Part shown: one piece after another, positions 14,811 through 33,593 of the stretch
How the letters are laid out: every line of letters begins with the position of its first letter
Position numbering within the stretch: the first letter of the stretch is position 1
From: an uncultured beta proteobacterium
Lineage (GTDB): Bacteria; Pseudomonadota; Gammaproteobacteria; Burkholderiales; SG8-39
Reading direction: 5' to 3'
Length of the DNA stretch: 64,000 nt
Assembly: GCA_963716855.1 (NCBI GenBank)
Contig: CAVQUV010000002.1
Coordinates: 170,758 to 234,757, forward strand
Made by a program: the position numbers and the translations under genes
Notes under the pieces: generated by a model
Seen by the model: only the letters and a program-made list of their open reading frames with translations
Databases searched by the model: none
What the model was told of the DNA's origin: nothing

Positions 14811-17415
<2,605 letters not shown>

Positions 17416-17722: not shown

Positions 17723-18694
17723 ATGTTCGACCGTTTCACCAGGGTTCTCGCACTCGCGCTGCTCGCGCTCCCGCTGGCGGCGCCGGCGCAGGACAAGATC
17801 ACTTTCATGACCAGCTGGTACGCGCAGGCCGAGCACGGCGGCTTCTACCAGGCGCTCGCGAAGGGCCTGTACAAGAAGTACGGCCTCGACGTCACCATCA
17901 GGATGGGCGGTCCCCAGGTGAACGGCATGCAGCTCATGATGGCGGGCCAGGCCGACATGCACATGGGCTACGACTTCCAGGTCCTCAAGTCGATCGAGCA
18001 GGGCCTGACGCCGGTGACCGTGGCGACCTCGTTCCAGCACGATCTCCAGGGCCTCCTCGCGCACGAGGACGTCAAGAGCCTCGGCGACCTCAAGGGCAAG
18101 ACCATCCTCGTCGCCACCGCGGGCCGCTCCTCCTGGTGGCCGTGGATGCGACAGAAATACGGCTACGCCGAGGAGCAGGTGCGCCCGTATACGTTCAACC
18201 TGCAACCCTTCCTCGCGGACCAGAATCTCGCGCAGCAGGCCTACCTGTCCTCCGAGCCCTTCCAGGCGGAGAAGGCCGGCGTGAAGGCGCGCTTCTTCCT
18301 CTTCGCGCGCGACGGCTTCCCGCCGTACGGCACGACCATCGTGGCCACCCAGAGGCTCGTGAAGGAGAAGCCGGACGTGGTGCAGCGCTTCGTGCGCGCG
18401 TCGATGGAAGGCTGGAAGGGCTACCTGGAGGATCCGGCCGCCGCGAACGAGCTGATCAAGAAGGACAACCCGAACATGAAGGACGACCAGCTCGCCTACG
18501 CGGTCGCGAAGCTGAAGGAGCAGAACCTGGTCGGCGGCGGCGACGCGGCGAAGATGGGCATCGGGGTGATGACCGACGAGCGCTGGAAGAAGACCCACGA
18601 ATACATGGTCTCGGCGGGGCTGCTGCCCGCGACCGTCGACGTCCGGCAGGCGTACACGACGCAGTTCGTCAAGGACCTGAAGGTCATGCCGTAA
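17723..18694 (+). CDS. ABC transporter periplasmic substrate-binding protein, NMT1/THI5-like (COG0715 nitrate/sulfonate/bicarbonate type)
   Basis: ATG 17723 follows the RBS AGGAGGG. It has a signal peptide (MFDRFTRVLALALLALPLAAPAQD) and the family hallmark WYAQAEHGGFYQALAKGLYKKYGLDV. It is the internal part of ORF 17522..18694. Confidence 0.85.
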   Translation: MFDRFTRVLALALLALPLAAPAQDKITFMTSWYAQAEHGGFYQALAKGLYKKYGLDVTIRMGGPQVNGMQLMMAGQADMHMGYDFQVLKSIEQGLTPVTVATSFQHDLQGLLAHEDVKSLGDLKGKTILVATAGRSSWWPWMRQKYGYAEEQVRPYTFNLQPFLADQNLAQQAYLSSEPFQAEKAGVKARFFLFARDGFPPYGTTIVATQRLVKEKPDVVQRFVRASMEGWKGYLEDPAAANELIKKDNPNMKDDQLAYAVAKLKEQNLVGGGDAAKMGIGVMTDERWKKTHEYMVSAGLLPATVDVRQAYTTQFVKDLKVMP

Positions 18695-18789
18695 GGCGCG
18701 CGCCGCCCGCGTCGCCAGGCGCGCCGCGCCGCGCTCGCCCGAAGGCGAGTCCGCGCGCGGCGCGGGAACCCCCCAGGCCAGCCATCGCA

Positions 18790-19596
18790 ATGTCCGCACT
18801 GCTCGCGTCCGCCAGGGACCCGGTCGTCGAGATCCGGGGGGCGGACAAGGTCTTCCCCAACGGCACCCGGGCGCTCAGCCCGGTCGACCTCACGATCCGC
18901 GGCGGCGAGTTCGTCACGCTGCTCGGTCCGTCGGGTTGCGGGAAGTCGACGCTGCTGAAGCTGATCGCGAACCTGATCGCGCCGTCCACCGGGACGCTCG
19001 GCTGGTGGCAGAGCGGGTTCGATCACGTCGGCGCGCCGGGCAAGAATCTCGTGATGGTGTTCCAGGACGCGACGCTCATGCCCTGGGCGCGCGTGCAGCG
19101 GAACGTGCGCCTGCCGCTCGATCTCGCGCAGATGGCCCGGGCGGACGCCGATGCGCGCGTGGCCGAGGCGCTGGCGCTCGTCGGACTGACCGGCTTCGAG
19201 ACCCACTACCCGCGGCAGCTCTCCGGCGGGATGCAGATGCGCGTCTCGATCGCGCGCGCGCTCGTGACCGAGCCGAACCTGCTGCTGATGGACGAACCGT
19301 TCGGGGCGCTCGACGAGATCACGCGCAACAAGCTGGACGCCGACATCATCCAGCTGTGGTGGAAGAAGCAGCTCACCATCGTCTTCGTGACGCACAGCAT
19401 CTACGAGGCGATCTTCCTGTCGACCCGCATCGTGGTCATGGCGGCGCGGCCGGGGCGGGTGCTGAAGGACGTCGTGATCGACGAGCCGCACCCCCGCACC
19501 GAGGCGTTCCGCGTCACCCAGAAGTTCGCCGCCTACGCGAAGGAGCTGACCGAGCTCCTCGCCGAAGCCAGCGCGAAGGGAGCGACCGACCTGTGA
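18790..19596 (+). CDS. ABC transporter ATP-binding protein (COG1116 type)
   Basis: MSALLASARDPVVEIRG... with Walker A GPSGCGKST, signature LSGGMQMRV and Walker B LLLMDEPFGALD. Confidence 0.9.
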   Translation: MSALLASARDPVVEIRGADKVFPNGTRALSPVDLTIRGGEFVTLLGPSGCGKSTLLKLIANLIAPSTGTLGWWQSGFDHVGAPGKNLVMVFQDATLMPWARVQRNVRLPLDLAQMARADADARVAEALALVGLTGFETHYPRQLSGGMQMRVSIARALVTEPNLLLMDEPFGALDEITRNKLDADIIQLWWKKQLTIVFVTHSIYEAIFLSTRIVVMAARPGRVLKDVVIDEPHPRTEAFRVTQKFAAYAKELTELLAEASAKGATDL

Positions 19597-20378
19597 GCGA
19601 CCGCCTCATTCGATGGGCCGCGCCGCTCGCCGTAGGCGTCTTCGTCCTGGTCCTCTGGCATGTGCTGGTGAAGGCTTTCGACGTGCCCAAGTTCCTCGTC
19701 CCGGGCCCGCTGCTCGTGCTCGAGACGCTGATCACCGACTGGGGCCTGCTGTTCCGGTCGCTGCTGGTCACGCTCAAGATCACGTTCGGCGCGTTCCTGC
19801 TGGCGGTCGTGATCGGCACGACGGTGGCATTCCTGTTCGTCCAGAGCCGCTGGGTCGAGATGAGTCTCTTCCCCTACGCGGTGCTGCTGCAGGTCACGCC
19901 GATCGTGGCGATCGCGCCGCTCATCATCATCTGGGTCAAGGAGCCGACCCTGGCGCTGATCGTCTGCGCCACGATCGTCGCGCTGTTCCCGATCATCTCC
20001 AACACGATCCTCGGGCTGCGCAGCGTGAACCCCGGGCTGATCAATTTGTTCCGCATGAACAAGGCGACGCGCTGGCAGACGCTCACGCAGCTGCGCATCC
20101 CGTCGGCCGCGCCGTACTTCTTCGGCGGCCTGCGCATCTCCTCGGGCCTCGCGCTGATCGGCGCGGTCGTGGCCGAGTTCGTCGCCGGCACGGGCGGCAC
20201 CGGCGCGGGCCTCGCCTACCAGATCCTCCAGGCGGGCTACCAGATCAACATTCCGCGCCTGTTCGCCGCGCTGCTGATGATCACCGTCACCGGCGTGCTG
20301 CTGTTCCTCCTGATGGTGTTCCTGTCCAAGCTGGCGCTCGCGAGCTGGCACGAGTCGGAAGTGGCGCACGAGAGCTAG
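19593..20378 (+). CDS. ABC transporter permease (COG0600 type)
   Basis: GTG 19593 overlaps the ATPase stop (GTGA). About 6 TM helices and a BPD-transporter EAA-like loop (NKATRWQTLTQLRIPSAAPYFFGGLR). Confidence 0.9.
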   Translation: MSDRLIRWAAPLAVGVFVLVLWHVLVKAFDVPKFLVPGPLLVLETLITDWGLLFRSLLVTLKITFGAFLLAVVIGTTVAFLFVQSRWVEMSLFPYAVLLQVTPIVAIAPLIIIWVKEPTLALIVCATIVALFPIISNTILGLRSVNPGLINLFRMNKATRWQTLTQLRIPSAAPYFFGGLRISSGLALIGAVVAEFVAGTGGTGAGLAYQILQAGYQINIPRLFAALLMITVTGVLLFLLMVFLSKLALASWHESEVAHES

Positions 20379-20473
20379 GATTGGATGAAACCGATGCCGC
20401 AGGCATCGCTTTCCCGGATTTCGGGGAGCACGCGGGGGCGCCGCGCAGCGGCACTGCTCCCTCGTGTCGTCGA

Positions 20474-21835
20474 ATGATGCTGATCAGGAACGCCACCGCC
20501 ATCATGACCGGCCTCGCGGGCGAGAATGCCCGGGCGGCCGGGCGCGACCTGCGCATCGACGCGAACGGCCGCATCGCGGCGATCGGCGCGCTCGCGCCGC
20601 AGCCCGGCGAGCGCGTGGTCGACGCCACCGACTGCGTCGTGTACCCCGGCTGGGTCAACACCCATCACCACCTCGCCCAGTCGGTGCTGAAGGGCGTGCC
20701 CGCGGGGATCAACCTGCCGCTGCTCGCCTGGCTGGACGCCGTACCCTATCGCTACCGCTCCCGCTTCGACGCGGAGCTGCTGGCGACCGCGGCGGAGATC
20801 GGGATCACGGAGCTCATGCTGTCGGGCTGCACGACGGTCGCCGACCATCACTACGTCTACTGGCCGGGAATGGGCTACGACCCGGCGCAGGTCTACTTCG
20901 ACCTCGCGGCGCGGCTCGGCGTCCGCTTCGTGCTCTGCCGCGGCGGCGCCACCGTGAAGCGGGCCTTCGAAGCGAACGACCCGAACGCGGTGCAGCCCGA
21001 GACGCTGGACGGGATCGTCGGCGACGTCGAGCGGCTCGTCGGCGCCTATCACGATCCGGGTCCCGAGGCGATGCGCCGCATCGTGCTCGCGCCGGCGACC
21101 CCCACCTGGTCGCTGCGCCCCGAGGAGCTGAAGCCGGCGGTGCGCGCGGCCCGCAAGCTCGGAATTCGCGTGCACAGCCATCTCTCGGAGACGGCCGACT
21201 ACGTCGCCTTCTGCCGCGAAAAGCACGACTGCAAGCCGGTCGAGTTCATGGCCGAGCACGAATGGCTCGGCAGCGACGTCTGGTTCGCGCACATGGTGCA
21301 TCTCTCCGCGTCGGAGATCCGGCTCGCGGGCGAGACCGGCACCGGCGTCGCGCACTGCCCCGCATCCAACTGCCGGCTGGGGAGCGGCGTCGCCCCGGTG
21401 GCGGAGCTCGCCCGCGCCGGCGCACCGGTGTCGATCGGCGTGGACGGCGCAGCCTCCAACGAGTCCGCCGACTTCATCACCGAGGCTCATACCTGCTGGT
21501 ACACGCACCGCGCGGTGAAGGGCGCCGCCGCGGTGACCGTCGAGGACGTGATCCACTGGGGCACCCGCGGTGGCGCGCGCGTGCTCGGGATCGACAACAT
21601 CGGCGCGCTCGAGGTCGGCCGCGCGGCGGACCTCGCCGTCTACTCGCTCGATCATCCGCGCTATGCGGGGCTGCACGATCCGGCGATCGGCCCGGTGGCG
21701 AGCGGTGGCAAGCCGCACCTCCGGCTCCTTACGGTGCAGGGACGGGTGGTGGTGGAAGACGATTCGATTCCCGGGCAGGACCTGCCGCGACTGCTCGCCC
21801 GCGCGCGCGAGGCCGTGCGGAAGCTTGCGAACTGA
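20474..21835 (+). CDS. Metal-dependent amidohydrolase, COG0402 family (8-oxoguanine/guanine/isoxanthopterin deaminase or AtzB/TrzA-like)
   Basis: 453 aa. MMLIRNATAIMTG... with the HxH metal site in PGWVNTHHHLAQ, plus VHSHLSET, AHCPASN and GVDGAASN. Confidence 0.85.
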   Translation: MMLIRNATAIMTGLAGENARAAGRDLRIDANGRIAAIGALAPQPGERVVDATDCVVYPGWVNTHHHLAQSVLKGVPAGINLPLLAWLDAVPYRYRSRFDAELLATAAEIGITELMLSGCTTVADHHYVYWPGMGYDPAQVYFDLAARLGVRFVLCRGGATVKRAFEANDPNAVQPETLDGIVGDVERLVGAYHDPGPEAMRRIVLAPATPTWSLRPEELKPAVRAARKLGIRVHSHLSETADYVAFCREKHDCKPVEFMAEHEWLGSDVWFAHMVHLSASEIRLAGETGTGVAHCPASNCRLGSGVAPVAELARAGAPVSIGVDGAASNESADFITEAHTCWYTHRAVKGAAAVTVEDVIHWGTRGGARVLGIDNIGALEVGRAADLAVYSLDHPRYAGLHDPAIGPVASGGKPHLRLLTVQGRVVVEDDSIPGQDLPRLLARAREAVRKLAN

Positions 21836-21837
21836 CC

Positions 21838-22698
21838 ATGCGGCGCTTCGAGTATTTCGAGCCTGGAACACTCGACGAGGTGGTCGCGCTGCTGGGGCGC
21901 TTCGGGGGCGACGCAAGCCTGCTCGCTGGCGGCACGGACCTGCTCGTCGAGATCAGGGAGCACCTCCGCTGGCCGCGGCAGGTCGTCAACATCAAGAAGA
22001 TCCCGGGCATGGCCGCGCTCGAGTTCGACGACCGGACCGGGCTGCGGTTCGGCGCGCTCGTCACTGCGCGCGAGATCGAGATCTCGCCGGTCGTGCTGGC
22101 GAAGTACCCGGGCCTCGCCCAGGCCGCGCGCGAGCTCGGTTCGATCCAGGTTCGCCATCGCGCCACGGTCGTCGGCAACATTTGCCGCGCGTCGCCCTCC
22201 GCCGACACGCTGCCCCCGCTGATCGCCGACGGTGCGACGGTGCGGATCTACGGACCCACGGGGGAGCGGACCGTCGCGCTCGAGTCGTTCTTCACCGGGC
22301 CCGGCAAGACGGTCCTCGCGCCCGGCGAACTGGTGACGGAGATCGCGGTGCCGCCGCCGCCGCCGCGCACCGGCAAGCACTACCTCAAGCACGGCCGCCG
22401 CAAGGCGATGGAGCTCGCGACCGTCGGCGTCGGCGTGACGCTCACGCTCGACGGCGTCGCGTGCCGCGAGATCCGGATCGCGCTCGGTGCCGTCGCGCCG
22501 ACGCCGATCCGCGCGCGGCAGGCGGAAGATGCGCTGCGCGGCCGGACGCCGGACGGCGCGGCGATCGAGGCGGCGGCGCGGATCGCGATGGGCGAATGCC
22601 GCCCGATCAGCAACGTGCGCGGCAGCGCGGCGTACCGGCGGGAAATGGTCGGCGTGCTCACGCAGCGCGCGATCGACGCAGGCACTGAGGGCGAGTAG
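21838..22698 (+). CDS. Molybdenum hydroxylase FAD-binding (medium, CoxM-like) subunit, copy 1
   Basis: 286 aa. F-Y-EP-TLDEVVALL...LLAGGTDLLVEI (FAD_binding_5) and a CO-dehydrogenase flavoprotein C-terminal domain (RGSAAYRREMVGVL). The ATG is 2 nt after the amidohydrolase stop. Confidence 0.88.
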   Translation: MRRFEYFEPGTLDEVVALLGRFGGDASLLAGGTDLLVEIREHLRWPRQVVNIKKIPGMAALEFDDRTGLRFGALVTAREIEISPVVLAKYPGLAQAARELGSIQVRHRATVVGNICRASPSADTLPPLIADGATVRIYGPTGERTVALESFFTGPGKTVLAPGELVTEIAVPPPPPRTGKHYLKHGRRKAMELATVGVGVTLTLDGVACREIRIALGAVAPTPIRARQAEDALRGRTPDGAAIEAAARIAMGECRPISNVRGSAAYRREMVGVLTQRAIDAGTEGE

Positions 22699-22700
22699 CG

Positions 22701-23184
22701 ATGAAGCGGGTCATCGAAGTCACGATCAACGGCGAGCGCCAGGCGCTGGCGCTCGAGCCCTACCGCAGCCTGCTCGACGTGCTGCGGAACGAGGTCGGGC
22801 TCACCGGCACGAAGAAGGGCTGCGACGTCGGCGACTGCGGCGCGTGCACCGTGCTGCTCGACGGCAAGCCGGTCAACTCGTGCCTCGTGCTCGGCGTCGA
22901 GGTCGGCGGCTGCGAGCGTCGTGACGATCGAGGGCCTCCAGCCCGACCCGGAGCGCCTGCACCCGCTGCAGGAGAGCTTCATGAAGCACGGCGGCGCGCA
23001 GTGCGGGTTCTGCACGCCGGGCTTCATCATGATGGCGAAGGCGCTGCTCGACGAGAATCCCGACCCGACCGAGGACGAGATCCGCTTCGGCATCGCGGGG
23101 AACATCTGCCGCTGCACCGGCTACACGAAGATCGTGACGGCGATCCAGGCGGCCGCGAAGGAACTCGCGGAGGCAAAGCCGTGA
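22701..23184 (+). pseudogene. Molybdenum hydroxylase [2Fe-2S] (small, CoxS-like) subunit, copy 1, with a +1 shift near nt 22917
   Basis: The N-terminal half is in frame 3 ([33 protein letters not shown]). The C-terminal half is in frame 1 ([10 protein letters not shown]...[16 protein letters not shown]...[15 protein letters not shown] 22921..23184). Confidence 0.85.
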
Positions 23185-25499
23185 GCATCGTAGGAAGCGC
23201 GATCGCAGGAAACGCGATCGTAGGAAACGCGATCGTAGGAACCAGCGTCAAGCGCACCGACCTGATCGGCAAGGTCACCGGCACCGCGCAGTACGCGGGC
23301 GACGTGAAGCTCGCCGGCATGCTGCACGGGAAGATCAAGCGCAGCAACATCGCGCATGCCAACATCAAACGCATCGACGTCAGCCGGGCGCGCGCGTTTC
23401 CCGGCGTGAAGGCGGTGCTGACGCACGAGAACGTGCCGCGCGTGCTGCACTACGGCTCGCCGCATCCGCGCTCGGCCTCGGTCACGTGCGATCAGTACAT
23501 CCTCGACCGGAAGGTGCGCTACTGGGGCGAGGGCGTCGCCGCCGTCGCGGCGGTGAGCGAGGAGATCGCCGAGGAGGCGCTCGACCTGATCGACGTCGAG
23601 TACGAGCCGCTGCCCGCCGTCTTCACCGTGGAGGCGGCGCAGGCCCCCGGCGCGCCGGTCATTCATGAGACCGGATACGCGAACAACCTGCTCTTCAAGC
23701 CGATCGTGGTCGCGCGCGGCGATGTCGCGAACGGTTTCGCGCAGGCCGATCTGATCCTCGAGGGCGAATACGAGACCGGACGCCCGACGCCGGCATACAT
23801 GGAGCCGAACGTCTGCGTGTGCCAGTGGGACAACACCGGCAAGCTCACGGTGTGGGTCTCGACCCAGACCGCGTTCATGGTGCGCGGGATCCTCGCCGAG
23901 GTGCTCGGCCTGCCGCTCAACAAAGTGCGGGTGCTCGTGGACCACATGGGCGGCGGCTTCGGCGCGAAGCAGGACCTCTTCCAGCACGAGTTCCTGTGCG
24001 CGCTGCTCGCAAAGGAGACCCGTCATCCGGTGCGGATGGAATTCACGCGCGGCGAGACGTTCGTCGGCGGGCGCTCGCGTCACCCCTGCAAGATCTGGCT
24101 CAAGCAGGGCTTCAGGAAGGACGGCACGATCGTCGCGCGCCAGGCGCGCATGACCTACAACAGCGGCGCATACGGCTCGCACGGACCGGGCGTCACCATC
24201 GTCGGCACGAGCGCGCTCACCTCGCTCTATCGCTGCGAGAACGTCCACCTCGAAGGGCGTTGCGTCTATACGAACACGCCGATCGCGGGTGCCTACCGCG
24301 GCTACGGCGTGGTGCAGACCTACTACGCGCTCGACATCCAGATGGACGAGGCCGCCGCCCGGCTCGGCATGGATCCCGTCGCGCTCAAGCTCAAGAACGC
24401 GGTGCGCGAGGGCGACCTGGCGCCGTCCGGCCACCCGATCGTCGGGCATGGCCTCGAGGACTGCATCCGGCGCGGCGCGCAGGAGACCGGCTGGGAGGCG
24501 CTGCGCCGGCGGCCGCGCGAGTCGGGCGGCACGCTGCGCCGCGGCTGGGGCATGGGCTGCGAGATGCACGGCTCCAGCGCCTACCCCGGCATCAAGGAGC
24601 AGGGCAACGCAATCGTGAAGATGAACGAGGACGGCACCGCCGTCCTCCTGACCGGCGCCGCCGGCCTGGGCACCGGGGCGCACACCGCGCTCGCGCAGAT
24701 CGTCGCCGAGGAGCTGGGGCTGCGCTTCGACGACATCGCCGTCGTCCACGGCGACACCGACATCGTGCCGTGGGACATCGGCGCGTTTGCGAGCCACACC
24801 ACGTTCATGGTGGGGCGCGCGGCGCAGATGGCGGCAGCCGAGGTGAAGAAACAGCTCCTCGCCCGCGCGGGGGAGCAGCTCGAAGTGGCGCCCGAGGATC
24901 TCGAGATCCGCGACAGCGTGATCGCGGTGCGCGGGGTCGCCGGCAAGGGCATGACCGTGCGCGAATCGATGGGTCCGAAGCCCGGCATCCCGGCGGCGAA
25001 CCTGCTGGGCAACGGGACCTACACGCCGACCAAGTCGTACTCGTTCGCCGCGCATTTCGTGGAGGTGCAGGTCGACACCGGGACCGGGCAGATCGACGTG
25101 CTGCAAGTCGTCCCGGTGCACGAGATCGGCAAGGTCGTGCATCCGGTCGCGGCCGCCGGCCAGATCGAAGGCGGGATCCAGCAAGGCATCGGCCACACGC
25201 TCACGGAGGAATACGTCGTCGATCTCACCAACGGCCGCTCGCTCAACGCCGGGTTCGTCGACTACAAGATGCCGCTGTCGATGGACATGCCGCCGATCAG
25301 GACGATCATCCTGGAGACCGCCCCGGATCCCGGCGGACCCTACGGGGCCAAGGGCCTCGGCGAGGATCCGATCATCGCCATCGGCCCCGCGATCGCCAAC
25401 GCCGTGCACGCCGCGATCGGCGTGCGCTTCCGCCATTTCCCGATCACGCCGGAGCAGGTGCTCGCGGCACTGAAGGACCCGTCGAATGCAGATGCCTGA
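23181..25499 (+). CDS. Molybdenum hydroxylase molybdopterin-binding (large, CoxL-like) subunit, copy 1
   Basis: GTG 23181 overlaps the small-subunit stop. 772 aa with [19 protein letters not shown], the active-site loop [14 protein letters not shown] and [18 protein letters not shown]. It lacks the CODH VAYRCSFR loop. Confidence 0.9.
23184..23243 (+). repeat. Four tandem 15-bp in-frame repeats at the 5' end of the large-subunit gene
   Basis: agcatcgtaggaagc / gcgatcgcaggaaac / gcgatcgtaggaaac / gcgatcgtaggaacc, encoding [20 protein letters not shown]. Confidence 0.75.
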
Positions 25500-27301: not shown

Positions 27302-27323
27302 GCGGCGAGCGCCTCGCGACCGC

Positions 27324-28199
27324 ATGAAACCTGCCGCATTCGAGTATCGCGCCCCGACGTCGCTCGAGGAGGTGTTCGGTCTCCTCGAGGCGAATCCGGA
27401 CGCGAAGCTCCTGGCCGGCGGGCAAAGCCTCGTGCCGGTGCTCAATTTCCGGCTGGCGGCACCGCCGCTCCTGATCGACCTCAATCGGATCCCCGCGCTC
27501 GCGGGCGTCGCGTTCGAGCGGAACGGTGCGCTGACGATAGGCGCGATGACGCGTCATCGCGTGTTCGAGACCGATCCACGCGTGCGCCAGGCGCAGCCGC
27601 TCGCCGCCGCAGCGGTTTCGGAGATCGCGCACGTGCCGATCCGCAATCGCGGCACGATCGGCGGGAGCCTCTGCCACGCCGATCCCGCGGCCGAGTGGCC
27701 CGCAGTCGCGCTCGCCTGCGGCGCCGAGCTGACCATCGCGCGCCGGGGTGCCACGCGCACCGTGCCCGCCGCCGATTTCTTCACCGGGCTGTTCAGCACA
27801 GTGGTCGGACCGGGCGAGCTCCTGACCGCGGTGCGCTTCCCCGCGTGGCCGGAGCGACGCCGCCACGGCTTCGTCGAGATCGCCCGCCGCCAGGGCGATT
27901 TCGCGATCGTCGGCGTCGCAGCGACGGTGGGCCTGGACGCGCAGGGCGACGCCGTCGCGGCGCGCATCGCGGTGTTCGGCGCCGCCGACACGCCGGTCCT
28001 TGCGGCCGAGGCGGCGCAGGCGCTCGTCGGTCGTCGCGGAATCGAGGCGGCGCGCGAGGCAGGGCGCATCGCGCGGGCGCGCATTCCGACGCGCTCGGAT
28101 CACCACGCGAGCGCCGAGTACCGCAGCGAGCTCATCGAGGTGCTGGTGCGCCGTGCGCTCGAGCAGGCGCTCGTGCCCGCGCCGGCAAAGGCGGCCTGA
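27324..28199 (+). CDS. Molybdenum hydroxylase FAD-binding (CoxM-like) subunit, copy 2
   Basis: 291 aa. MKPAAFEYRAPTSLEEVFGLLE...LLAGGQSLVPVLNFR and a C-terminal ASAEYRSELIEVLVRRAL. Confidence 0.88.
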   Translation: MKPAAFEYRAPTSLEEVFGLLEANPDAKLLAGGQSLVPVLNFRLAAPPLLIDLNRIPALAGVAFERNGALTIGAMTRHRVFETDPRVRQAQPLAAAAVSEIAHVPIRNRGTIGGSLCHADPAAEWPAVALACGAELTIARRGATRTVPAADFFTGLFSTVVGPGELLTAVRFPAWPERRRHGFVEIARRQGDFAIVGVAATVGLDAQGDAVAARIAVFGAADTPVLAAEAAQALVGRRGIEAAREAGRIARARIPTRSDHHASAEYRSELIEVLVRRALEQALVPAPAKAA

Positions 28200-28669
28200 T
28201 GCCCGTCGAAATCGCGCTCACGGTGAACGGCCAAAGCGCGCGCGGCTCGGTCGAGCCGCGCGAATCGCTCGCCGACTTCCTGCGCGAGGACCTCGCGCTC
28301 ACGGGTACGCACCTCGGCTGCGAGCACGGCGCGTGCGGCGCGTGCACGGTGCTGGTCGACGGCGCGGCGGTGCGGTCGTGCCTGATGTTCGCCGTGCAGG
28401 CCGACGGCGCGAAGATCGTGACGGTGGAGGGGCTCGCGCGCGGTGACGAGCTCTCACCGCTGCAGCGCGCCTTTCACGCGCATCACGCCCTTCAGTGCGG
28501 GTTCTGCACCCCCGGCTTCCTCGTCACGGCGACGGCGTTGCTCGCGGAGAACCCGGATCCGACGCCCGACGAGGTCCGCGCCGCGCTCTCGGGAAGCCTC
28601 TGCCGGTGCACCGGATACATCGGGATTGTCGCAGCGGTGCTCGCCGCAGCGAAGGCGGGTGGCGCGTGA
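28199..28669 (+). CDS. Molybdenum hydroxylase [2Fe-2S] (CoxS-like) subunit, copy 2
   Basis: 156 aa with GCEHGACGACTVLVDG...[10 protein letters not shown]...LCRCTGY. The ATG overlaps the preceding stop. Confidence 0.9.
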   Translation: MPVEIALTVNGQSARGSVEPRESLADFLREDLALTGTHLGCEHGACGACTVLVDGAAVRSCLMFAVQADGAKIVTVEGLARGDELSPLQRAFHAHHALQCGFCTPGFLVTATALLAENPDPTPDEVRAALSGSLCRCTGYIGIVAAVLAAAKAGGA

Positions 28670-30922
28670 GAGAGCGACGCGGCGGCGCGCGGCTGGGTCG
28701 GGCGTGCGGTTCCGCGCAGCGAGGATCTGCGCTTCGTCACCGGGCGCGGGCGCTACGTCGACGACCTGAAGTTTCCGGGCATGCTGCACGCGGTGGTCGT
28801 GCGCAGCGCGCATGCCCACGCGCTGCTGCGGGGCATCGACACGACCGCGGCGCTCGCCGTGCCGGGCGTCGCCGCAGTGTTCACGTTCGCCGACATCGCC
28901 GTGCATGCCGCGCCGATCCCGGTCCGGACCGGGCCGCTCGAAGGGACCGAGCGCTACCTGCAGCGACCGCTCGCAAGCGACCGGGTTCGCTACGTGGGCG
29001 AGCCGGTCGCGTTGGTGGTCGCGGCCGACCGCTACGTCGCCGAGGACGCAGCCGAGCGGGTCGCGGTGGACTACGAGCCGCTGCCCGCTGTGGTCGACGT
29101 TGCGGCCGCGCGCATCGATCGAACGCTGCTCTTCCCCGAGACGGGCACGAACCGGTCGTGCGCCTATCGCATCGCGCTCGGCGACGTCGACGCGGCGTTC
29201 GCGCGTGCCGACTACGTGCGCACCGAGACGTTCCGGTGCCAGCGCCATGGCGCGATTCCGTTGGAGACGCGCGGCCTCGTCTGCCTGGAGCGCGACGGCA
29301 CGCTCGAGGTCTGGGGCGCGACGAAGGTGCCTTTCTGGAACCGCCGCACCCTCGCGGCGATGCTCGAGCGCCCGGTCGATTCGATCGCGATGATCGAGGT
29401 CGACGTCGGCGGCAGCTTCGGAGCGCGCGGCGAGTTCTATCCCGAGGACCTCCTGATCCCGTTCGCGGCCCTCGCGCTCGGGCGGCCGGTGAAGTGGATC
29501 GAGGACCGGCGCGAGCACCTGATGGCCGCGAACCACTCCCGCGAGATGGAGTGCGAGCTGTCGGTCGCCCTCGCGCGCGACGGCACCCTGCTCGGGCTGC
29601 GCGGGCGGCTCGCGGTGGACATGGGCGCCTACACGCGCACTAACAGCGGTGTAGTACCGTCGAAGGCCGCGCAATTCCTGCTCGGACCGTACCGACTGCG
29701 GCACTTCGGTTGCGACGTCGAGCTCGCGATGACGAACAAGACGCCGGTGGGCACCTACCGGGCGCCGGGGCGGTTCGAAGCGAATTTCTTCCGCGAGCGG
29801 CTGTTCGACATCGCCTGCGGCGAACTGGGGATCGATCGCGTCGCGTTCCGGGAGAGGAACCTCATCCGGCCCGACGAGCTGCCCTGGTCGATCGGCAAGA
29901 CCGTGCCCTACGAGCCGGAGACCGAATACGACACCGGCGACTATCCTGGCCTGTTCCGCCGCGCGCTCGAGGCGTTCGACTACGCCGGCCGGATGCAGCG
30001 CGCCGCCGCAGCGCGTGACGGCCGGCTGCACGGCGTGGGCTTCGGCTGCTTCGTGGAGTCGAGCGGCGCCGGGCCGGCCGAGTCGGCGCGCATCGTCGCG
30101 CGGGGGAGGGGCCGCTTCGACCTCTACACCGGCACCTCGTCGGCCGGGCAGGGGCACGAGACCTCGCTCGCCCAGATCCTCGCCGATGCGGTCGGTGCGC
30201 CGCTCGCGGCGATCGCGGTGCATCACGGCTCGACCGGGCTCGTGCCGCAGGGATTCGGCACGTTTCACAGCCGCGCGGTCGTCGTCGGCGGGAGCGCCGT
30301 GATGCTGGCCGGCGAGAAGCTCGCCGCGCAGCTCGCGGCGCTTGCGGCCGAGCGCGGAACGACCGTCGAGTCGCTCGACCTTGACGCACTTGCTGCAGCG
30401 TCGCATCCTGCGCTCGAAGCGCTCGCGACGTTCGAGGTCGACAAGCGGACCTACACGTACGGCGTGCATCTGTGTCACGTCGCCGTGGACCCGGAAACCG
30501 CGCGCGTCGACGTGCTCGACTATCTCTCCACCGAGGACGTGGGGCGCGCGATCAACCCGCTGATCGTTCACGGCCAGGCGATCGGCGCGGCGGTGCAGGG
30601 GCTGGGCGGCGCCTTTCTGGACGAGTTCAAGTACGACGCCGAGGGGCAGCTCCTCACCGGCACCTTCGCCGACTACCTGCTCCCGACCGCAACCGACTTC
30701 CCGAACGTGTCCGCGCTGACCTTCGAGGAGTCGCCCTCGCTGCTCAATCCGCTCGGCGCGAAGGGCGCCGGGGAGGGCGGCATCGTCGCGGTCGGCGCGG
30801 CGGTGGGCAACGCCGTGGCGCACGCGCTCGCGCCGCTCGGCGTGGCGATCACGGCCATGCCGCTGTCGCTCGACAACCTTGCGCGCGCGATTCGCGCGGC
30901 GCGCGGCAAAGGCGGCTCGTGA
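28666..30922 (+). pseudogene. Molybdenum hydroxylase molybdopterin-binding (CoxL-like) subunit, copy 2; its 5' end needs a +1 shift near nt 28684
   Basis: ORF 28781..30922 (713 aa, loop GTYRAPGRFEANFF) begins at an internal Met. The conserved N-terminus WVGRAVPRSEDLRFVTGRGRYVDDLKFPG is encoded upstream in the same frame. There is no ATG, GTG or TTG between the stop at 28667-28669 and that segment. GTG 28666 (overlapping the copy-2 small-subunit stop) is one frame off. Confidence 0.8.
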
Positions 30923-30972
30923 GCGGGGAAAGGCGGTATGCTTTCAAGGCAGCGTCCACACGGGAGGAACCC

Positions 30973-31953
30973 ATGACAGCTCGGCCCAACAATCTTGTTC
31001 GCACCGCAGCCGCGCTTCTCGCCGTGGGATTCGCCGGCGTGGCGATGGCGCAGGACGTCAACGTGCGCTTCTCGTGGAAGCTCAAGGGCGAGTACGCGCC
31101 GCTGTACGTCGCGCAGGAGAAGGGCTACTACAAGCAGGAAGGCCTCAACGTGCGCCTCGGTGAGGGGGCCGGCGCGCAGGCCGCGCTCGGGGCGCTGCTG
31201 CAGGGGCAGGAGGATGCGGTGCTGCTGCCCGGGATCTTTGCGCTCACGGCGATCACCAAGGGCATGCCGGTCAAGCTCATCGCGCTCTATCACCCGCAGA
31301 CGCCGATGGCGATCATCTCGTACCCCGACAACCCGATCCGCACGCCCAAGGATCTCGAGGGCAAGACGATCCCGCACTCGGTCGGCGAGACGGCGACCTC
31401 GTACCTCGACGTGCTGTGCAAGCTGAACAACGTCGACTGCACGAAGATCAACAAGGTCCAGATGGCGCCGCAGGCGCGCGCCTCGCAGTTCGTCGCGCGC
31501 AAGGTCGACGGCCTCAGCGTCTACCAGACCAACGACCTGCCGCTGATCGAGGCGCAGCAGAAGGACGCGAACTTCGTGGTCCTCGACCTGCCGAAGCACG
31601 GCCTGCAGGTGCCCGGGATGGCGCTGGTGACGAGCGACAAGCTCATCGCCGAGAAGCCAGATGCGCTGAAGAAGCTTCTGCGCGCCACCGGTAAAGCGGT
31701 CGGCGATGCGCAGAAGGACCCGACGGACGCGGCGCGCATGATGCTCAAGAACTGGTCGGGCGGTCCCGCCGAGACGATCGTGATCAAGCAGGTCAAGGCG
31801 ACGGTGGACGCGATCCCCGCCAGCGGCGGGCGGCCGGTCGGCTGGATCGACGAGAAGGTGATCGCCGCGGCGCTCGAGATCCTGCAGAACGCGAAAGAGA
31901 TCGACGCGCCCAAGCCGCTGAATACCTACTACACGAACGCGCTGCTGCAGTAA
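30973..31953 (+). CDS. ABC transporter periplasmic substrate-binding protein, NMT1/COG0715 type, copy 2
   Basis: ATG 30973 follows the RBS GGGAGGA. It has a signal peptide (LLAVGFAGVAMAQD) and the hallmark WKLKGEYAPLYVAQEKGYYKQEGLNV. Confidence 0.85.
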   Translation: MTARPNNLVRTAAALLAVGFAGVAMAQDVNVRFSWKLKGEYAPLYVAQEKGYYKQEGLNVRLGEGAGAQAALGALLQGQEDAVLLPGIFALTAITKGMPVKLIALYHPQTPMAIISYPDNPIRTPKDLEGKTIPHSVGETATSYLDVLCKLNNVDCTKINKVQMAPQARASQFVARKVDGLSVYQTNDLPLIEAQQKDANFVVLDLPKHGLQVPGMALVTSDKLIAEKPDALKKLLRATGKAVGDAQKDPTDAARMMLKNWSGGPAETIVIKQVKATVDAIPASGGRPVGWIDEKVIAAALEILQNAKEIDAPKPLNTYYTNALLQ

Positions 31954-31975
31954 GCGCCCCCGAACCTTCGCGAGA

Positions 31976-32005
31976 CGAGCCGCCACCCGCGGCTCGTTTT
32001 CGTTT
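31976..32005 (+). terminator. Intrinsic terminator/attenuator between the binding-protein and permease genes
   Basis: An 8-bp GC stem CGAGCCGC/GCGGCTCG (31976-31983 and 31989-31996) with a 5-nt loop, followed by TTTTCGTTT. The permease ATG is at 32008. Confidence 0.55.
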
Positions 32006-32007
32006 AG

Positions 32008-32790
32008 ATGACGCCACGGAACCGACGTAAGCTGAAGCGCGCCGTGCTCGAGCGGCTTGCCGCGCCGGTGCTCGCGGTCGTCGTGCTGCTCGTGTGGCAG
32101 GGCGCCGTCTCGGTTCTCGGCATCTCGGAATTCATCCTGCCCTCGCCCTGGGCGATCCTCAAACGGATCTACAGCGACTTCGCGCTGCTCTTCGCGCACA
32201 CCCGCGTCACGATGCTCGAAGTGGTCGGCGGGTTCGGGCTCGCCGCGCTGACGGGCGTTCCCTTCGCGCTCGCGATCTTCTATTCGCGCCTCGTCGAGAA
32301 GGCGATCTACCCGCTGCTGGTCGGGCTGCAGACGATCCCGAAGGTGGCGCTCGCGCCGCTGCTGGTGCTCTACCTCGGGTACGGCTGGGCGCCCAAGATC
32401 TTCCTCGCGTTCCTGATCTCGTTCTTCCCGATCGTCATCTCGACCGTGGTCGGCCTGCAATCGCTCGACAAGAGCCTCGTGTATCTGGTGCGCTCCATGG
32501 GCGCGAGCGAACGGCAGACCTTCTGGAAGATCCGCCTGCCGGCCGCGCTGCCGAGCGTGTTCGGCGGCTTCAAGGTCGGGATTGCGCTCGCCGTGATCGG
32601 AGCGGTGATCGGCGAGTACGTCGCCTCCGAGCGCGGGCTGGGCTACCTGCAGATGCAGGCCACCTCGCAGTTCGACACCACGCTCAACTTCGCCTCGGTC
32701 GTCGTGATCTCGCTCGTCGGCGTCGTGCTGTACTTCGTGCTCGCGGCGTTCGAGGCGCGGCTCGTATTCCAGCGCGACCACGCGCGCTAG
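32008..32790 (+). CDS. ABC transporter permease, copy 2
   Basis: 260 aa with ~6 TM helices and the EAA-like loop SERQTFWKIRLPAALPSVFGGFK. Paralogous to 19593..20378. Confidence 0.9.
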   Translation: MTPRNRRKLKRAVLERLAAPVLAVVVLLVWQGAVSVLGISEFILPSPWAILKRIYSDFALLFAHTRVTMLEVVGGFGLAALTGVPFALAIFYSRLVEKAIYPLLVGLQTIPKVALAPLLVLYLGYGWAPKIFLAFLISFFPIVISTVVGLQSLDKSLVYLVRSMGASERQTFWKIRLPAALPSVFGGFKVGIALAVIGAVIGEYVASERGLGYLQMQATSQFDTTLNFASVVVISLVGVVLYFVLAAFEARLVFQRDHAR

Positions 32791-32804
32791 GCGAGGGCGT
32801 GCGC

Positions 32805-33593
32805 ATGAGCTCACATGGGGTGGCGCTGCGGATCGAGGGCGTCACCAAGATCTACGAAACGCGCGAGGGCGACCCGCTTCCGGCGCTCGATCCGACCGAT
32901 TTCGAGGTCGCGCCGGGGGAGTTCGTCGCGGTCGTCGGCCCGAGCGGCTGCGGCAAGAGCACGCTGCTGTCGCTCGTCGCCGCGCTCTTCCCGGTTTCCG
33001 CCGGACGCATCCTGATCGACGACGAGGAAGTGAAGCGGCCTCACCCGAAGGTCGGCGTAGTGTTCCAGACCGACCTGCTGCTCTACTGGCGCACCGTCCT
33101 CGACAACCTGCTGCTGCCGGCGGAGATCAAGGGTTGGGAGCGGCGCAAGTACGCCGCGCGCGCGGACGCGCTCCTCGAGCAGGTCGGGCTCGCCGGGTTC
33201 GGGCAGAAGTACCCGTCGGAGCTCTCGGGCGGCATGAAGCAGCGCGTGGCGCTCGCCCGCGCGCTGATCCAGGAGCCGGGGCTCCTGTTGATGGACGAGC
33301 CGTTCGGCGCGCTCGACGCGCTCACGCGCGAGCAGATGATCATGGACCTGCAGGCGATGTGGCTCGACGTGCGCAACACGGTGGTCTTCATCACCCACGA
33401 CATCGCGGAAGCGGTGTTCCTCGCGGACCGCGTGCTCGTGATGTCCCCGCGGCCGGGCCGGATCGACCTCGATCTGCGGATCGACCTGCCGCGCCCGCGG
33501 CGCTCGCATATCCATGCGGAGCCGGGGTTTCTCGAGTTGACGGGGCGCATCCGCGCGGAGTTCGAAAAGCGCGGCGTGCTGCGGGAGCGCTAG
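32805..33593 (+). CDS. ABC transporter ATP-binding protein, copy 2
   Basis: MSSHGVALRIEGVTKIY... with Walker A GPSGCGKST, signature LSGGMKQRV and Walker B LLLMDEPFGALD. It is the C-terminal part of ORF 32094..33593. Confidence 0.9.
   Translation: MSSHGVALRIEGVTKIYETREGDPLPALDPTDFEVAPGEFVAVVGPSGCGKSTLLSLVAALFPVSAGRILIDDEEVKRPHPKVGVVFQTDLLLYWRTVLDNLLLPAEIKGWERRKYAARADALLEQVGLAGFGQKYPSELSGGMKQRVALARALIQEPGLLLMDEPFGALDALTREQMIMDLQAMWLDVRNTVVFITHDIAEAVFLADRVLVMSPRPGRIDLDLRIDLPRPRRSHIHAEPGFLELTGRIRAEFEKRGVLRER

Follow-up and report, generated by a model that had tools for sequence, protein, structure and literature searches.

Bacterial breakdown of pterin and lumazine to xanthine has recently been assigned to cluster I (LA1_0140-0152) of Cupriavidus sp. 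LA-1 (Doi, Maeda & Takaya 2025, Commun Biol 8:1292; PMC12391406), in which the UbiD enzyme XCDC converts xanthine-8-carboxylate to xanthine. For the xanthine riboswitch class, Yu & Breaker (2020) described OFF regulation by xanthine/urate and targets including NMT1/THI5-like, tauA-type, hutI-like amidohydrolase and PRK12393 genes. Lumazine and pterin are mentioned in neither of the riboswitch papers checked (Yu & Breaker 2020; PMC8266621), and no report linking the xanthine riboswitch to genes for 6,7-dihydroxylumazine isomerase (DHLI) was found in the searchable literature.

In the window, the whole 64-kb stretch of DNA analysed, we consider it likely that positions 17.45-41.14 kb form a pteridine (pterin/lumazine) catabolic regulon of two convergent operons. 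An initial annotation had delimited a unit at 17723-33593, and its 15 co-directional plus-strand genes agree with Pfam in the order claimed: NMT1-type SBP, ABC ATPase, permease, Amidohydro_1, FAD_binding_5/CO_deh_flav_C, Fer2/Fer2_2, Ald_Xan_dh_C/MoCoBD_1/2 and cobW/CobW_C, then TauE, a second FAD/FeS/Mo set, an NMT1 SBP, a permease and an ATPase. Its limits were too narrow, since an aptamer lies upstream at 17489-17565 and a convergent operon with a linked function follows at 36275-41106; the two Amidohydro_2 and two UbiD genes of the latter (36.3-40.9 kb) had gone unmentioned. The cluster and its flanks are conserved across related Burkholderiales MAGs, and the arrangement is thus not due to chance. 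No terminator above chance was found within the 15-gene run. The first operon begins with the following features, the genes of which make up module 1:

17448-17476, + strand: putative promoter-like element TTGACA-N17-TATACA, 5' of riboswitch 1
17489-17565, + strand: xanthine-riboswitch (NMT1 RNA, RF03054) aptamer 1 in the SBP1 5' leader; Rfam 35.4 bits, E 2.7e-6
17583-17589, + strand: conserved GCGAUCC box, candidate expression platform, able to pair with the aptamer 3' strand (alternative helix)
17723-18694, + strand: SBP1, NMT1/THI5-like periplasmic binding protein; PF09084, 112 bits; GGAGG ribosome-binding site
18790-19596, + strand: ABC ATPase 1; PF00005; NitT/TauT-type by NCBIfam
19593-20378, + strand: ABC permease 1; PF00528; start overlaps the ATPase stop codon by 4 nt
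20379-20476, + strand: structured intergenic element, 98 nt; MFE -50 kcal/mol
20477-21835, + strand: PRK12393-family amidohydrolase; NF009059, 718.6 bits (cutoff 543)
21838-22698, + strand: LuDH-like FAD subunit, set 1 (FAD1); PF00941, PF03450
22701-23184, + strand: LuDH-like [2Fe-2S] subunit, set 1 (FeS1); Fer2 and Fer2_2 match the repaired translation
23181-25499, + strand: LuDH-like molybdopterin large subunit, set 1 (Mo1); PF01315, PF02738, PF20256
25486-26496, + strand: CobW/COG0523 GTPase; PF02492, PF07683

The convergent operon comprises:

36275-37612, - strand: second UbiD-family decarboxylase (UbiDa); UbiD_N, UbiD, UbiD_C; refined start
37617-38999, - strand: XCDC-like UbiD decarboxylase; UbiD domains
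39027-39941, - strand: DHLI beta-like Amidohydro_2 (6,7-dihydroxylumazine isomerase, catalytic subunit); PF04909
39964-40885, - strand: DHLI alpha-like Amidohydro_2 paralogue; PF04909
41030-41106, - strand: xanthine-riboswitch aptamer 2, 5' leader of the DHLI-alpha operon; covariance model CM R1 75.4 bits; RF03054 33.7 bits, E 8.4e-6
41112-41140, - strand: putative promoter-like element TTGACA-N17-TAAAAA, 5' of riboswitch 2

Judging by sequence, module 1 and the convergent operon are orthologous to LA-1 cluster I, as assessed through congeneric Cupriavidus genomes of identical gene order and not through the LA-1 sequence itself. One of these genomes, Cupriavidus nantongensis, carries at locus L045 the same 13 genes in precisely the order published for LA-1 (DHLI-alpha, DHLI-beta, UbiD, Xan_ur permease, LysR, FAD, FeS, Mo, UbiX, cobW, AraC, permease and NF009059 deaminase). 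Compared with a dozen Cupriavidus loci of L045-like order, the window proteins show identities of 87-89% for DHLI-beta, 66-67% for DHLI-alpha, 69-72% for XCDC, 73-76% for Mo1, 62-67% for FeS1, 58-61% for FAD1, 57-60% for the GTPase (its Cupriavidus counterpart is likewise cobW/CobW_C) and 52-54% for the deaminase, whose counterpart at the PDA position also belongs to NF009059. DHLI-beta lies within 10 kb of the Mo1 orthologue in 62 of the 80 loci recovered with Mo1; it is 85-93% identical among loci and retains His6, His8 and Asp235. DHLI-alpha, 67% identical to DHLI-beta in the window, lacks the HxH motif (SACH replaces THLH). The XCDC gene is syntenic with the DHLI genes across about 60 loci (63-74% identity), UbiDa is restricted to near relatives plus two further loci, and SBP1 is 85-96% identical in close relatives of the locus. 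The 98-nt element has no match in Rfam and only one other copy, at a different intergenic position in L009; it is absent from L010.

The initial annotation had considered the sequence insufficient for naming a substrate. Pterins/lumazines converted to xanthine are instead indicated by orthology to LA-1 cluster I and by the adjacent isomerase and decarboxylase genes. Its outline of N-heterocycle uptake, deamination and Mo-dependent hydroxylation, with pterin among the candidates, stands, whereas its claims on substrate, regulator and symmetry do not. It had named clustering of both large subunits with a characterised enzyme of like operon as evidence against its reading; set 1 does cluster tightly with LuDH and shares the core operon composition, and set 2 does not.

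In the proposed pathway, pterin and lumazine compounds would enter the cell through the SBP1-ATPase1-permease1 ABC importer, with SBP1 as the proposed pteridine binder, although we know of no NMT1-type SBP for which pteridine binding is established. Pterins such as 7-hydroxypterin (isoxanthopterin) would be deaminated to the corresponding lumazines by the PRK12393 amidohydrolase, a proposed PDA-like pterin/7-hydroxypterin deaminase by homology, and FAD1-FeS1-Mo1, by orthology a lumazine dehydrogenase (LuDH), would hydroxylate C7 and then C6 to give 6,7-dihydroxylumazine. DHLI alpha/beta would convert this product to xanthine-8-carboxylate, possibly aided in Zn loading by the CobW GTPase, which we propose as a Zn-insertion/folding helper resembling LA1_0143 (role taken from PMC12391406). 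XCDC would then release xanthine, its required prFMN presumably being supplied by a UbiX encoded elsewhere.

A purine-oxidation operon is a quite unlikely alternative, in which the amidohydrolase would deaminate guanine or 8-oxoguanine, both Mo enzymes would be xanthine/hypoxanthine dehydrogenases yielding xanthine and urate, and the riboswitch would prevent over-accumulation. PRK12393 and NMT1 genes were taken as purine-related by Yu & Breaker, and the COX-group XOR (E2) of LA-1 oxidises xanthine, but the Mo1 orthologue LuDH shows less than 0.1 U/mg on xanthine (both PMC12391406). Likewise, 8-oxoguanine deaminase is the second-best NCBIfam match of the amidohydrolase and XdhA the nearest NCBIfam model for Mo1, yet both scores fall under their cutoffs (425.7 bits against 532 and 652.7 against 780). 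In 62 of 80 loci, moreover, the core is linked to genes for DHLI and XCDC, enzymes that play no part in purine oxidation. The best PDB match and nearest solved relative of the amidohydrolase, 2PAJ, which we take to be an isoxanthopterin deaminase, reportedly acts as a deaminase on isoxanthopterin and pterin-6-carboxylate, with neither guanine nor 8-oxoguanine as a substrate.

The remainder of the first operon, module 2, consists of:

26546-27301, + strand: TauE/SafE-family membrane protein, first gene of module 2; PF01925
27324-28199, + strand: XOR set 2 FAD subunit; PF00941, PF03450
28199-28669, + strand: XOR set 2 [2Fe-2S] subunit (FeS2); Fer2, Fer2_2
28670-30922, + strand: XOR set 2 Mo large subunit (Mo2), CoxL-like group; Pfam domains from residue 24 of the frame opening at 28670
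30973-31953, + strand: SBP2, NMT1-like binding protein; PF09084, 133.6 bits
32008-32790, + strand: ABC permease 2; PF00528
32805-33593, + strand: ABC ATPase 2; PF00005

Several details of the initial annotation are confirmed here: the loop GAYRGYGV is present in Mo1 (residue 370, about nt 24288) and GTYRAPGRFE in set 2 (about nt 29750), the CO-dehydrogenase motif AYRCSFR is absent from both Mo subunits, and no XdhC/CoxDEF-type maturation genes occur among the 15 genes. Its description of a duplicated, near mirror-symmetric pair of modules has to be abandoned. The modules are distant paralogues, with 24% identity between the SBPs, 34% between the permeases, 45% between the ATPases, and 36%, 54% and 29% between the FAD, FeS and Mo subunits, respectively. 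Module 2 is absent from L009, although the Mo1 of that locus is 94% identical to that of the window, and is therefore not a duplication; it is a later seven-gene insertion into the first operon, confined to the nearest relatives. The TauE gene occurs only in L001, L004, L005, L006, L008, L010 and L011, and L090 carries a set-2 XOR orthologue in a different gene context. Module 2 is tied to pteridines by position alone. As a best guess, it would let the cell import and hydroxylate further pteridine- or purine-like compounds.

That the locus is instead a duplicated uptake-plus-oxidation supercluster for an unknown N-heterocycle, with no tie to any characterised pathway, seems very unlikely. Both Mo subunits and both SBPs do score under all NCBIfam equivalog cutoffs, and module 2 lacks close relatives of characterised function (for Mo2, the top PDB match is 7DQX at 530 bits, and identity is at most 62% outside a small clade). 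However, a characterised cluster has gene-for-gene counterparts of module 1 and the convergent operon at 52-89% identity, and the modules are not duplicates, as the L009 locus attests. For module 1, this alternative is largely refuted.

Some genes of the proposed regulon are interrupted as sequenced. In FeS1, one extra base near 22917, seen relative to L001, L007, L009 and L010, shifts the frame, and frame 0 reads through without a stop into Mo1 (932-aa ORF, 22701-25499). DHLI-alpha has a frame break near 40170-40212 when set against L009. At least six single-base breaks occur in the window, in Amino_oxidase, AMP-binding enzyme, ClpB, FeS1, Mo2 and DHLI-alpha genes, so that the FeS1 frameshift is probably an assembly error; the same explanation is most likely for DHLI-alpha and ClpB. 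The overlapping starts and stops of the initial annotation hold at 19593, 23181, 25486 and 28199 but not at 28666, where the GTG and the conserved Mo2 N-terminus are in different frames; the latter lies in the FeS2 frame directly after the FeS2 TGA, and the first canonical in-frame start, ATG 28781, falls within the hammerhead domain. Since this offset recurs in a second assembly, L089, the frame anomalies need not all be errors. Genuine decay, in which the FeS1 frameshift and Mo2 start loss are pseudogenising mutations that leave the cluster non-functional, is nevertheless highly improbable. The window has no intact reading frame for FeS1 or Mo2, and L089 is an independent assembly (99.3% identical); against this, ClpB, amine oxidase, AMP-binding enzyme and DHLI-alpha genes are broken too, each site compared with relatives carries exactly one extra base, Mo2 differs between the window and L089 by six synonymous and two non-synonymous changes, the 87 nt 5' of the first Mo2 ATG are unchanged between them, and GC3 is about 0.9 throughout FeS1 and Mo2.

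In the proposed regulon, both operons would start with a promoter-like element followed by an aptamer of the xanthine riboswitch. The elements, read from the sequence, share the core GATCCCCTA; that at 17448-17476 was missed by a consensus scanner because its final -10 base is A. Both aptamers score just under the RF03054 gathering score of 36, and the purpose-built covariance model CM R1 gives aptamer 1 83.7 bits. Aptamer 1 occupies the equivalent site in L001, L004, L005, L009, L010 and L011, shows P1/P2 covariation and has J1 GAAGCGG and J2 AU-UG intact; aptamer 2 has a homologous position in L009 and the Cupriavidus loci. The aptamer structure is 93.8% paired with compensatory change at four pairs, its covariation score was reached by none of 500 shuffles, and the ligand-contacting nucleotides (as in PMC8266621) are kept in both copies. 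Thirty of the 37 riboswitch matches lie upstream of a DHLI-alpha gene and five upstream of SBP1, and of 62 related loci, 29 have the aptamer 5' of the DHLI genes, all 14 Cupriavidus loci among them. MFE folding of both leaders (145-158 nt up to the start codon) was not significant. The alternative helix of the GCGAUCC box has eight pairs, with 46 of 48 cells in standard pairs (RNAalifold, six leaders), and the box may act in gene control. The claim that the cluster has no regulator holds for protein regulators among the 15 genes, but an aptamer stands directly 5' of SBP1 and another at the head of the convergent operon. As the class is an OFF switch, xanthine or urate would repress both operons, and the two riboswitches probably shut the cluster off as xanthine builds up (end-product feedback). 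Transcript levels of cluster I in LA-1 were reported to respond little to xanthine ('relatively little effect'; PMC12391406). That transcript result is silent on translational control.

Compared with LA-1 cluster I, the locus has the same PRK12393-type pterin deaminase, CobW-type GTPase, three-subunit FAD/FeS/Mo lumazine dehydrogenase in identical gene order, adjacent Amidohydro_2 pair (DHLI alpha/beta, the Zn ligands of beta being retained) and UbiD-type decarboxylase, and shares with Cupriavidus loci of this architecture the xanthine-riboswitch aptamer 5' of DHLI-alpha. It differs in that ABC importer(s) of NMT1/TauABC type stand in place of the two Xan_ur permeases, in the absence of UbiX, AraC and an adjacent LysR, in its two convergent operons with one riboswitch each, and in an extra UbiD paralogue and the seven-gene insertion (TauE, second CoxL-like XOR, second ABC importer). 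The isoxanthopterin pathway of Alcaligenes faecalis (McNutt, 1960s; in PMC12391406), whose host also belongs to the Burkholderiales, runs through the same deamination, hydroxylation to tetrahydroxypteridine, isomerisation to xanthine-8-carboxylate and decarboxylation to xanthine, but its genes were never identified in that species. The isoxanthopterin deaminase Sgx9339a (2PAJ; Hall et al. 2010, cited as ref. 65 in PMC5737381) is of the PRK12393 family and aligns end to end with the window protein (about 60% identity, 546 bits), yet that protein is of environmental (Sargasso Sea) origin, known without its genomic context and only from in vitro characterisation. CoxL-like ('form II') Mo hydroxylases, e.g. 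6-hydroxypseudooxynicotine dehydrogenase (7DQX), are like set 2 in being encoded by three genes (FAD/FeS/Mo) and in having the catalytic GxGE glutamate, and the YRAPGR loop of set 2 resembles AYRGAGR; in contrast, the 7DQX match is only 530 bits, the set-2 orthologue group (at least 82% identity) is confined to a few Burkholderiales MAGs, and, unlike CODH, set 2 has no AYRCSFR Cu-binding loop. Relative to RF03054 (Yu & Breaker 2020; Xu et al. 2021), both aptamers keep the P1-J1-P2a-P2b architecture, the J1 (GAAGCGG) and J2 (A-U) ligand-contacting nucleotides and the placement in 5' leaders of NMT1/THI5-like and amidohydrolase genes of Proteobacteria, but have a long P2b insertion, score 0.6-2.3 bits under the gathering score and would regulate a pathway, pteridines to xanthine, that the riboswitch papers do not consider. 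Taken together, the cluster is likely a variant of the recently characterised pterin/lumazine breakdown pathway, with ABC importers, an extra Mo enzyme module and two riboswitches.

The fifteen co-directional genes at 17723-33593 were confirmed by GC3 frame plots, start-codon inspection and Pfam, in the order proposed by the initial annotation: an NMT1/THI5-like binding protein (SBP1), an ABC ATPase and a permease; a COG0402-type amidohydrolase; FAD, FeS and Mo subunits (set 1); a CobW/COG0523 GTPase; a TauE protein; a second FAD, FeS and Mo trio (set 2); and SBP2 with its permease and ATPase. Both large-subunit loop motifs, GAYRGYGV and GTYRAPGR, lie where they had been placed, the CO dehydrogenase loop VAYRCSFR is absent from both large subunits, and there is neither an XdhC/CoxDEF-type maturation gene nor a protein regulator among the fifteen genes. 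The genes from SBP1 to the GTPase form module 1 and those from TauE onwards module 2. A recent duplication of one module into the other is ruled out, as their counterparts are only 24-54% identical. Downstream, on the opposite strand, a convergent operon contains genes for two neighbouring Amidohydro_2 paralogues and for a pair of UbiD proteins.

Features of the window discussed in the text
17490-17564: candidate xanthine riboswitch aptamer 1, in the 230-nt gap before SBP1
20379-20476: 98-nt structured intergenic element between permease 1 and the deaminase
26546-33593: module 2 (TauE, FAD2-FeS2-Mo2, SBP2-permease2-ATPase2)
33664-35364, minus strand: 566-aa protein with NMT1/THI5-like and GGDEF domains
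35365-36274: 0.9-kb low-GC (60%) segment
35549-36214, plus strand: open reading frame within the low-GC segment
36275-37612, minus strand: second UbiD, end of the convergent operon
37617-38999, minus strand: UbiD protein resembling xanthine-8-carboxylate decarboxylase (XCDC)
39027-39941, minus strand: probable beta subunit of 6,7-dihydroxylumazine isomerase (DHLI-beta)
39964-40885, minus strand: DHLI-alpha
41030-41106, minus strand: candidate aptamer 2, upstream of DHLI-alpha
42332-43598, minus strand: two tandem AlgH-like (DUF179) genes
56041-56406, minus strand: tmRNA gene

The substrate of this supercluster had been considered unknown. Module 1 and the convergent operon instead match a pterin/lumazine-to-xanthine pathway published in 2025. 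Cluster I of Cupriavidus sp. LA-1, characterised by Doi, Maeda & Takaya 2025 (PMC12391406), encodes a deaminase acting on pterin and 7-hydroxypterin (LA1_0140); a GTP-binding protein (LA1_0143), which aids zinc loading of the isomerase and always accompanies DHLI beta; UbiX (LA1_0144); a three-subunit, NAD+-dependent lumazine dehydrogenase (LuDH, LA1_0145-0147), which converts lumazine via 7-hydroxylumazine into 6,7-dihydroxylumazine; a UbiD-type XCDC (LA1_0150); and the two-subunit Amidohydro_2 isomerase DHLI (LA1_0151/0152). LuDH, the orthologue of Mo1, does not oxidise xanthine, and the cluster, which is variable in organisation, also carries two permeases and two regulators (PMC12391406).

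All window proteins were mapped onto 80 loci obtained from one scan of species-representative genomes with a Mo1 alignment. In this mapping the FAD1-FeS1-Mo1-GTPase core adjoins two Amidohydro_2 genes and one UbiD gene, and DHLI-beta lies within 10 kb of Mo1 in 62 of the 80 loci. The LA-1 cluster I gene order was found in at least 12 of the 14 Cupriavidus loci. In the locus of Cupriavidus nantongensis (L045), Pfam and NCBIfam confirmed all 13 genes of the published order, including UbiX, the cobW-type GTPase, both Xan_ur permeases, LysR, AraC and the NF009059 deaminase. The identities below refer to Cupriavidus loci of LA-1 gene order, not to the sequences of LA-1 itself.

Identity of window proteins to Cupriavidus loci of LA-1 gene order
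DHLI-beta: 87-89%
Mo1: 73-76% (14 loci)
XCDC: 69-72%
DHLI-alpha: 66-67%
FeS1: 62-67% (14 loci)
FAD1: 58-61% (14 loci)
GTPase: 57-60%, with the same cobW and CobW_C domains
Deaminase: 52-54%, to the gene in the pterin deaminase (PDA) position

DHLI-beta (MIIDTHLHPT..., FGTD(235)SPPNEPG) keeps the published zinc ligands His6, His8 and Asp235. DHLI-alpha is 67% identical to beta and has lost the HxH motif, reading S5-A6-C7-H8, so that His6 is gone and His8 retained; in the Cupriavidus alpha subunit these positions are S6/Y8. The XCDC-like protein has UbiD domains and is syntenic in about 60 loci. The amidohydrolase passes NF009059 (PRK12393) with a score of 718.6 against a cutoff of 543, the Cupriavidus gene in the PDA position scoring 788.5. 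Among solved structures, 2PAJ matches it best by a wide margin (546 bits at about 60% identity) and is taken here as the isoxanthopterin deaminase that Hall et al. 2010 described. All six core features of LA-1 cluster I that were compared are present, namely the LuDH trio, DHLI beta, DHLI alpha, UbiD, the GTPase and the deaminase. UbiX, both Xan_ur permeases and AraC were absent, by tblastn with Cupriavidus queries, from the window and from three related loci (L001 and the near relatives L009 and L010); UbiX and the permeases are accessory and lie outside the catalytic core. Taken together, the identities of the core, the gene order and the conserved DHLI zinc ligands argue, at the sequence level, that module 1 and the convergent operon probably constitute a variant of the LA-1 cluster I type of pterin/lumazine-to-xanthine pathway.

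The initial annotation had named, as evidence against its view, tight grouping of the large subunits with an already characterised enzyme from an operon of the same composition; of the two sets, only set 1 shows such grouping. Other assignments were rejected on score. Under TIGR02416 (CO dehydrogenase, form I CoxL) the two large subunits reach 302.8 and 422.6, where the cutoff is 991; under the NCBIfam equivalog NF043082 (XdhA/XdhB) Mo1 reaches 652.7, below 780, and Mo2 341.4; and scores for 4-hydroxybenzoyl-CoA reductase and glyceraldehyde dehydrogenase were also under the curated cutoffs.

Module 2 is confined to the closest relatives. In the near relative L009, which has no module 2, the convergent UbiD/DHLI operon comes immediately after the GTPase. 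Mo2 falls within the CoxL-like group, with 7DQX as its best PDB match (530 bits), and passes no NCBIfam equivalog cutoff. Its orthologue group is small, identity outside it being at most 62%. The LA-1 'E2' enzyme, a COX-group XOR that oxidises xanthine and lumazine (LA1_3154-3156), was the target of a comparison of set 2 with Cupriavidus; among the best 120 Mo2 matches (at least 57% identity) no named entry was Cupriavidus, most entries being without an organism name. A portable cassette of an XOR with its own ABC importer is ruled out by locus L090, where the Mo2 orthologue (73%) has different partners and a non-orthologous transporter. The position of module 2 in a riboswitch-led operon, in which terminators do not exceed chance, hints weakly at a related role, concerning pteridines or purines.

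The riboswitches in question belong to the xanthine (NMT1 RNA) class, RF03054, and were seen in permissive local Rfam scans; at the gathering threshold the window yields only the tmRNA gene (RF00023, 198 bits). Aptamer 1 scores 35.4 bits (E 2.7e-6) against a gathering score of 36, and relatives carry it at the same position. Aptamer 2 scores 33.7 bits (E 8.4e-6) in Rfam and 75.4 bits under our own covariance model, which was built from 13 aptamer instances. Neither aptamer reaches the RF03054 gathering score, the shortfall being 0.6-2.3 bits; an insertion of roughly 24 nt in P2b lowers the score. In the 13-sequence alignment 93.8% of cells are paired across the P1, P2a and P2b helices, against 29-58% in slid controls; four pairs show double (compensatory) changes, and none of 500 shuffles reaches the observed covariation score. 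Both aptamers read GUAGAAGCGGUC...GGAGAUUGC and keep the junction nucleotides of the ligand pocket (A6, G7-A8-A9-G10-C11, A39, U40, U41). The only pocket difference in either is at position 38 (G versus C/A), which makes contact through its phosphate alone, by M3 coordination (Xu et al. 2021, PMC8266621).

The association extends well beyond the window. Our model also finds copies upstream of DHLI-alpha in Herminiimonas, Janthinobacterium, Rhodoplanes, Ensifer and others; 30 of the 37 tabulated matches lie upstream of DHLI-alpha and five upstream of SBP1, and 29 of the 62 DHLI loci have a strong match. All 14 Cupriavidus loci of cluster I type (L038, L044-L046, L049, L051, L052, L054, L055, L060, L061, L065, L067 and L070) carry an aptamer 93-307 nt upstream of DHLI-alpha (about 1340-2420, plus strand, in the loci). 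Several ABC-importer loci without the riboswitch have a divergent LysR gene instead.

Promoter-like elements (TTGACA-N17-TAnAnA) were read by eye ahead of both window aptamers; a promoter and terminator scan did not detect them, and its terminator counts were at chance level. After each window aptamer a conserved GCGAUCCY box can pair with the aptamer 3' strand, forming a conserved alternative helix that competes with the aptamer. For the two leaders, MFE folding gave no significant result (z = -0.6 and -1.0). The class binds xanthine and urate and turns expression OFF; its targets include NMT1/THI5-like, tauA-type, hutI-like amidohydrolase and PRK12393 genes, and the physiological logic was found unclear (Yu & Breaker 2020). 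Since the pteridine pathway ends in xanthine, an OFF switch would amount to end-product feedback: by analogy with the behaviour of the class described by Yu & Breaker 2020, accumulating xanthine would switch both aptamers OFF and so restrain the pathway. The description of the cluster by Doi et al. 2025 (PMC12391406) makes no mention of a riboswitch. Among the papers searched, none pairs "xanthine riboswitch" with "lumazine", and the three that pair it with "pterin" are unrelated. A general association of the riboswitch with DHLI thus appears to be unreported.

At least six single-base frame breaks occur across the 64 kb, in unrelated genes.

Frame breaks in the window
7559-9134 (7.6-9.1 kb): amine oxidase, split between frames
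9107-11724 (9.1-11.7 kb): AMP-binding enzyme, split between frames
17126-17134 (about 17127): ClpB, one extra base relative to every relative
22917: FeS1, one extra base relative to every relative
28666-28693: Mo2 start, one extra base relative to every relative, L089 apart
40170-40212 (near 40.19 kb): DHLI-alpha, one frame break

The relatives compared at the ClpB, FeS1 and Mo2-start sites include L010, with proteins 95-99% identical. FeS1 is broken in the given sequence by its extra base, and its frame 0 runs stop-free into Mo1 as a 932-aa open reading frame (22701-25499). Programmed frameshifting in FeS1 is ruled out by insertions of the same one-base kind in unrelated genes across the window. 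Because the breaks also strike unrelated genes, including a housekeeping chaperone, they point to mostly technical causes, that is, assembly error rather than decay of the cluster. Frequent single-base insertions, to which this assembly seems prone, produce false fusions, such as the 932-aa frame, and false pseudogenes.

Four of the five overlapping start and stop codons reported earlier are real; the fifth, a GTG at 28666, does not share the frame of the conserved N-terminus of Mo2. That N-terminus (WVGRAVPRSEDLRF...) lies in the FeS2 frame, directly after the FeS2 TGA. L089, a 9-kb contig from an independent assembly that shares 99.3% identity with the window, shows the same +1 offset, its FeS2/Mo2 spacing (1508-1536) being 28 nt rather than 27, and in both sequences FeS2 and Mo2 share a reading frame that one TGA interrupts. 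A 24-nt segment at the junction holds eight of the 65 differences between window and L089, including compensating +2/-2 indels. Mo2 itself differs by six synonymous and two non-synonymous changes, with none in the 87 nt preceding the first ATG; with so few non-synonymous changes between two strains, Mo2 seems to be under constraint. At the junction, either a GC-rich repeat has caused a systematic error or the oddity is real, and the in-frame FeS2-TGA-Mo2 arrangement, found in two assemblies, could be a genuine read-through fusion.

Several neighbouring features were also recorded. The 566-aa protein between the two operons starts with a hydrophobic segment, carries an NMT1/THI5-like binding domain and ends in a GGDEF diguanylate cyclase domain; it is present in L089 and replaced by a GMC oxidoreductase in the related loci L001 and L004. 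It could tie pteridine or purine sensing to c-di-GMP signalling. The low-GC segment between its gene and the UbiD genes contains an open reading frame matching the Phage_base_V / VgrG OB domain and looks like a fragment of foreign DNA. The second UbiD is 32% identical to the XCDC-like protein, is closest to VdcC-type models and was found in near relatives and two other loci only; our guess for its substrate is pterin- or lumazine-6-carboxylate. The 98-nt intergenic element (MFE -50 kcal/mol) has no Rfam match; a 91% identical copy lies between the deaminase and FAD1 in L009 (8551-8637), and L010 lacks it. The AlgH-like genes, also in tandem in L009, are followed by 3-methyladenine glycosylase and acyl-CoA dehydrogenase genes, apparently unrelated to the cluster.

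These results turn a supercluster of unknown substrate into a testable assignment. The pathway was previously shown in one Cupriavidus isolate, and its range is extended by core clusters from Burkholderiales and Rhizobiales of soil and freshwater, where at least 62 species-level genomes carry them. They also link work on the xanthine riboswitch (2017-2021) with that on pterin and lumazine catabolism (2025), between which searchable papers contain no cross-citation. Part of the riboswitch regulon would accordingly need re-annotation from "purine oxidation" to "pteridine catabolism". A broader reading, which joins four proposals and which we hold as speculative and rather unlikely as a whole, is as follows. 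The xanthine riboswitch class may largely serve to sense the end product when bacteria break down pteridines; a pathway that turns pterins and lumazines into xanthine would then explain its puzzling OFF logic and its association with NMT1/THI5-like, 'hutI'-like (DHLI) and PRK12393 genes. In this lineage, the TauE protein, the CoxL-like XOR, the second ABC importer and possibly also the additional UbiD would form a new upper branch, through which a second class of pteridines, for example 6-substituted pterins derived from degraded folate, could enter the trunk pathway. Lumazine-type intermediates or xanthine-8-carboxylate might likewise be sensed by the aptamers, given that they have in common the 2,4-dioxopyrimidine face read by the RNA. 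The fourth proposal is the FeS2-Mo2 fusion. Apart from this broader reading, pteridines are predicted as a new ligand class for NMT1/THI5-like ABC binding proteins, and module 2, a small CoxL-like enzyme module inside a pathway of known chemistry, offers a favourable setting for substrate discovery.

Compared with LA-1 cluster I, the window has an ABC importer of the NMT1/TauABC type in place of the permeases. Rubrivivax, Azohydromonas, Ideonella and Ramlibacter share the arrangement of importer plus deaminase, and two Cupriavidus species share the importer. What is new here is the two-operon layout with dual riboswitches, the ABC importers, the inserted CoxL-like module and the general association of the riboswitch with DHLI.
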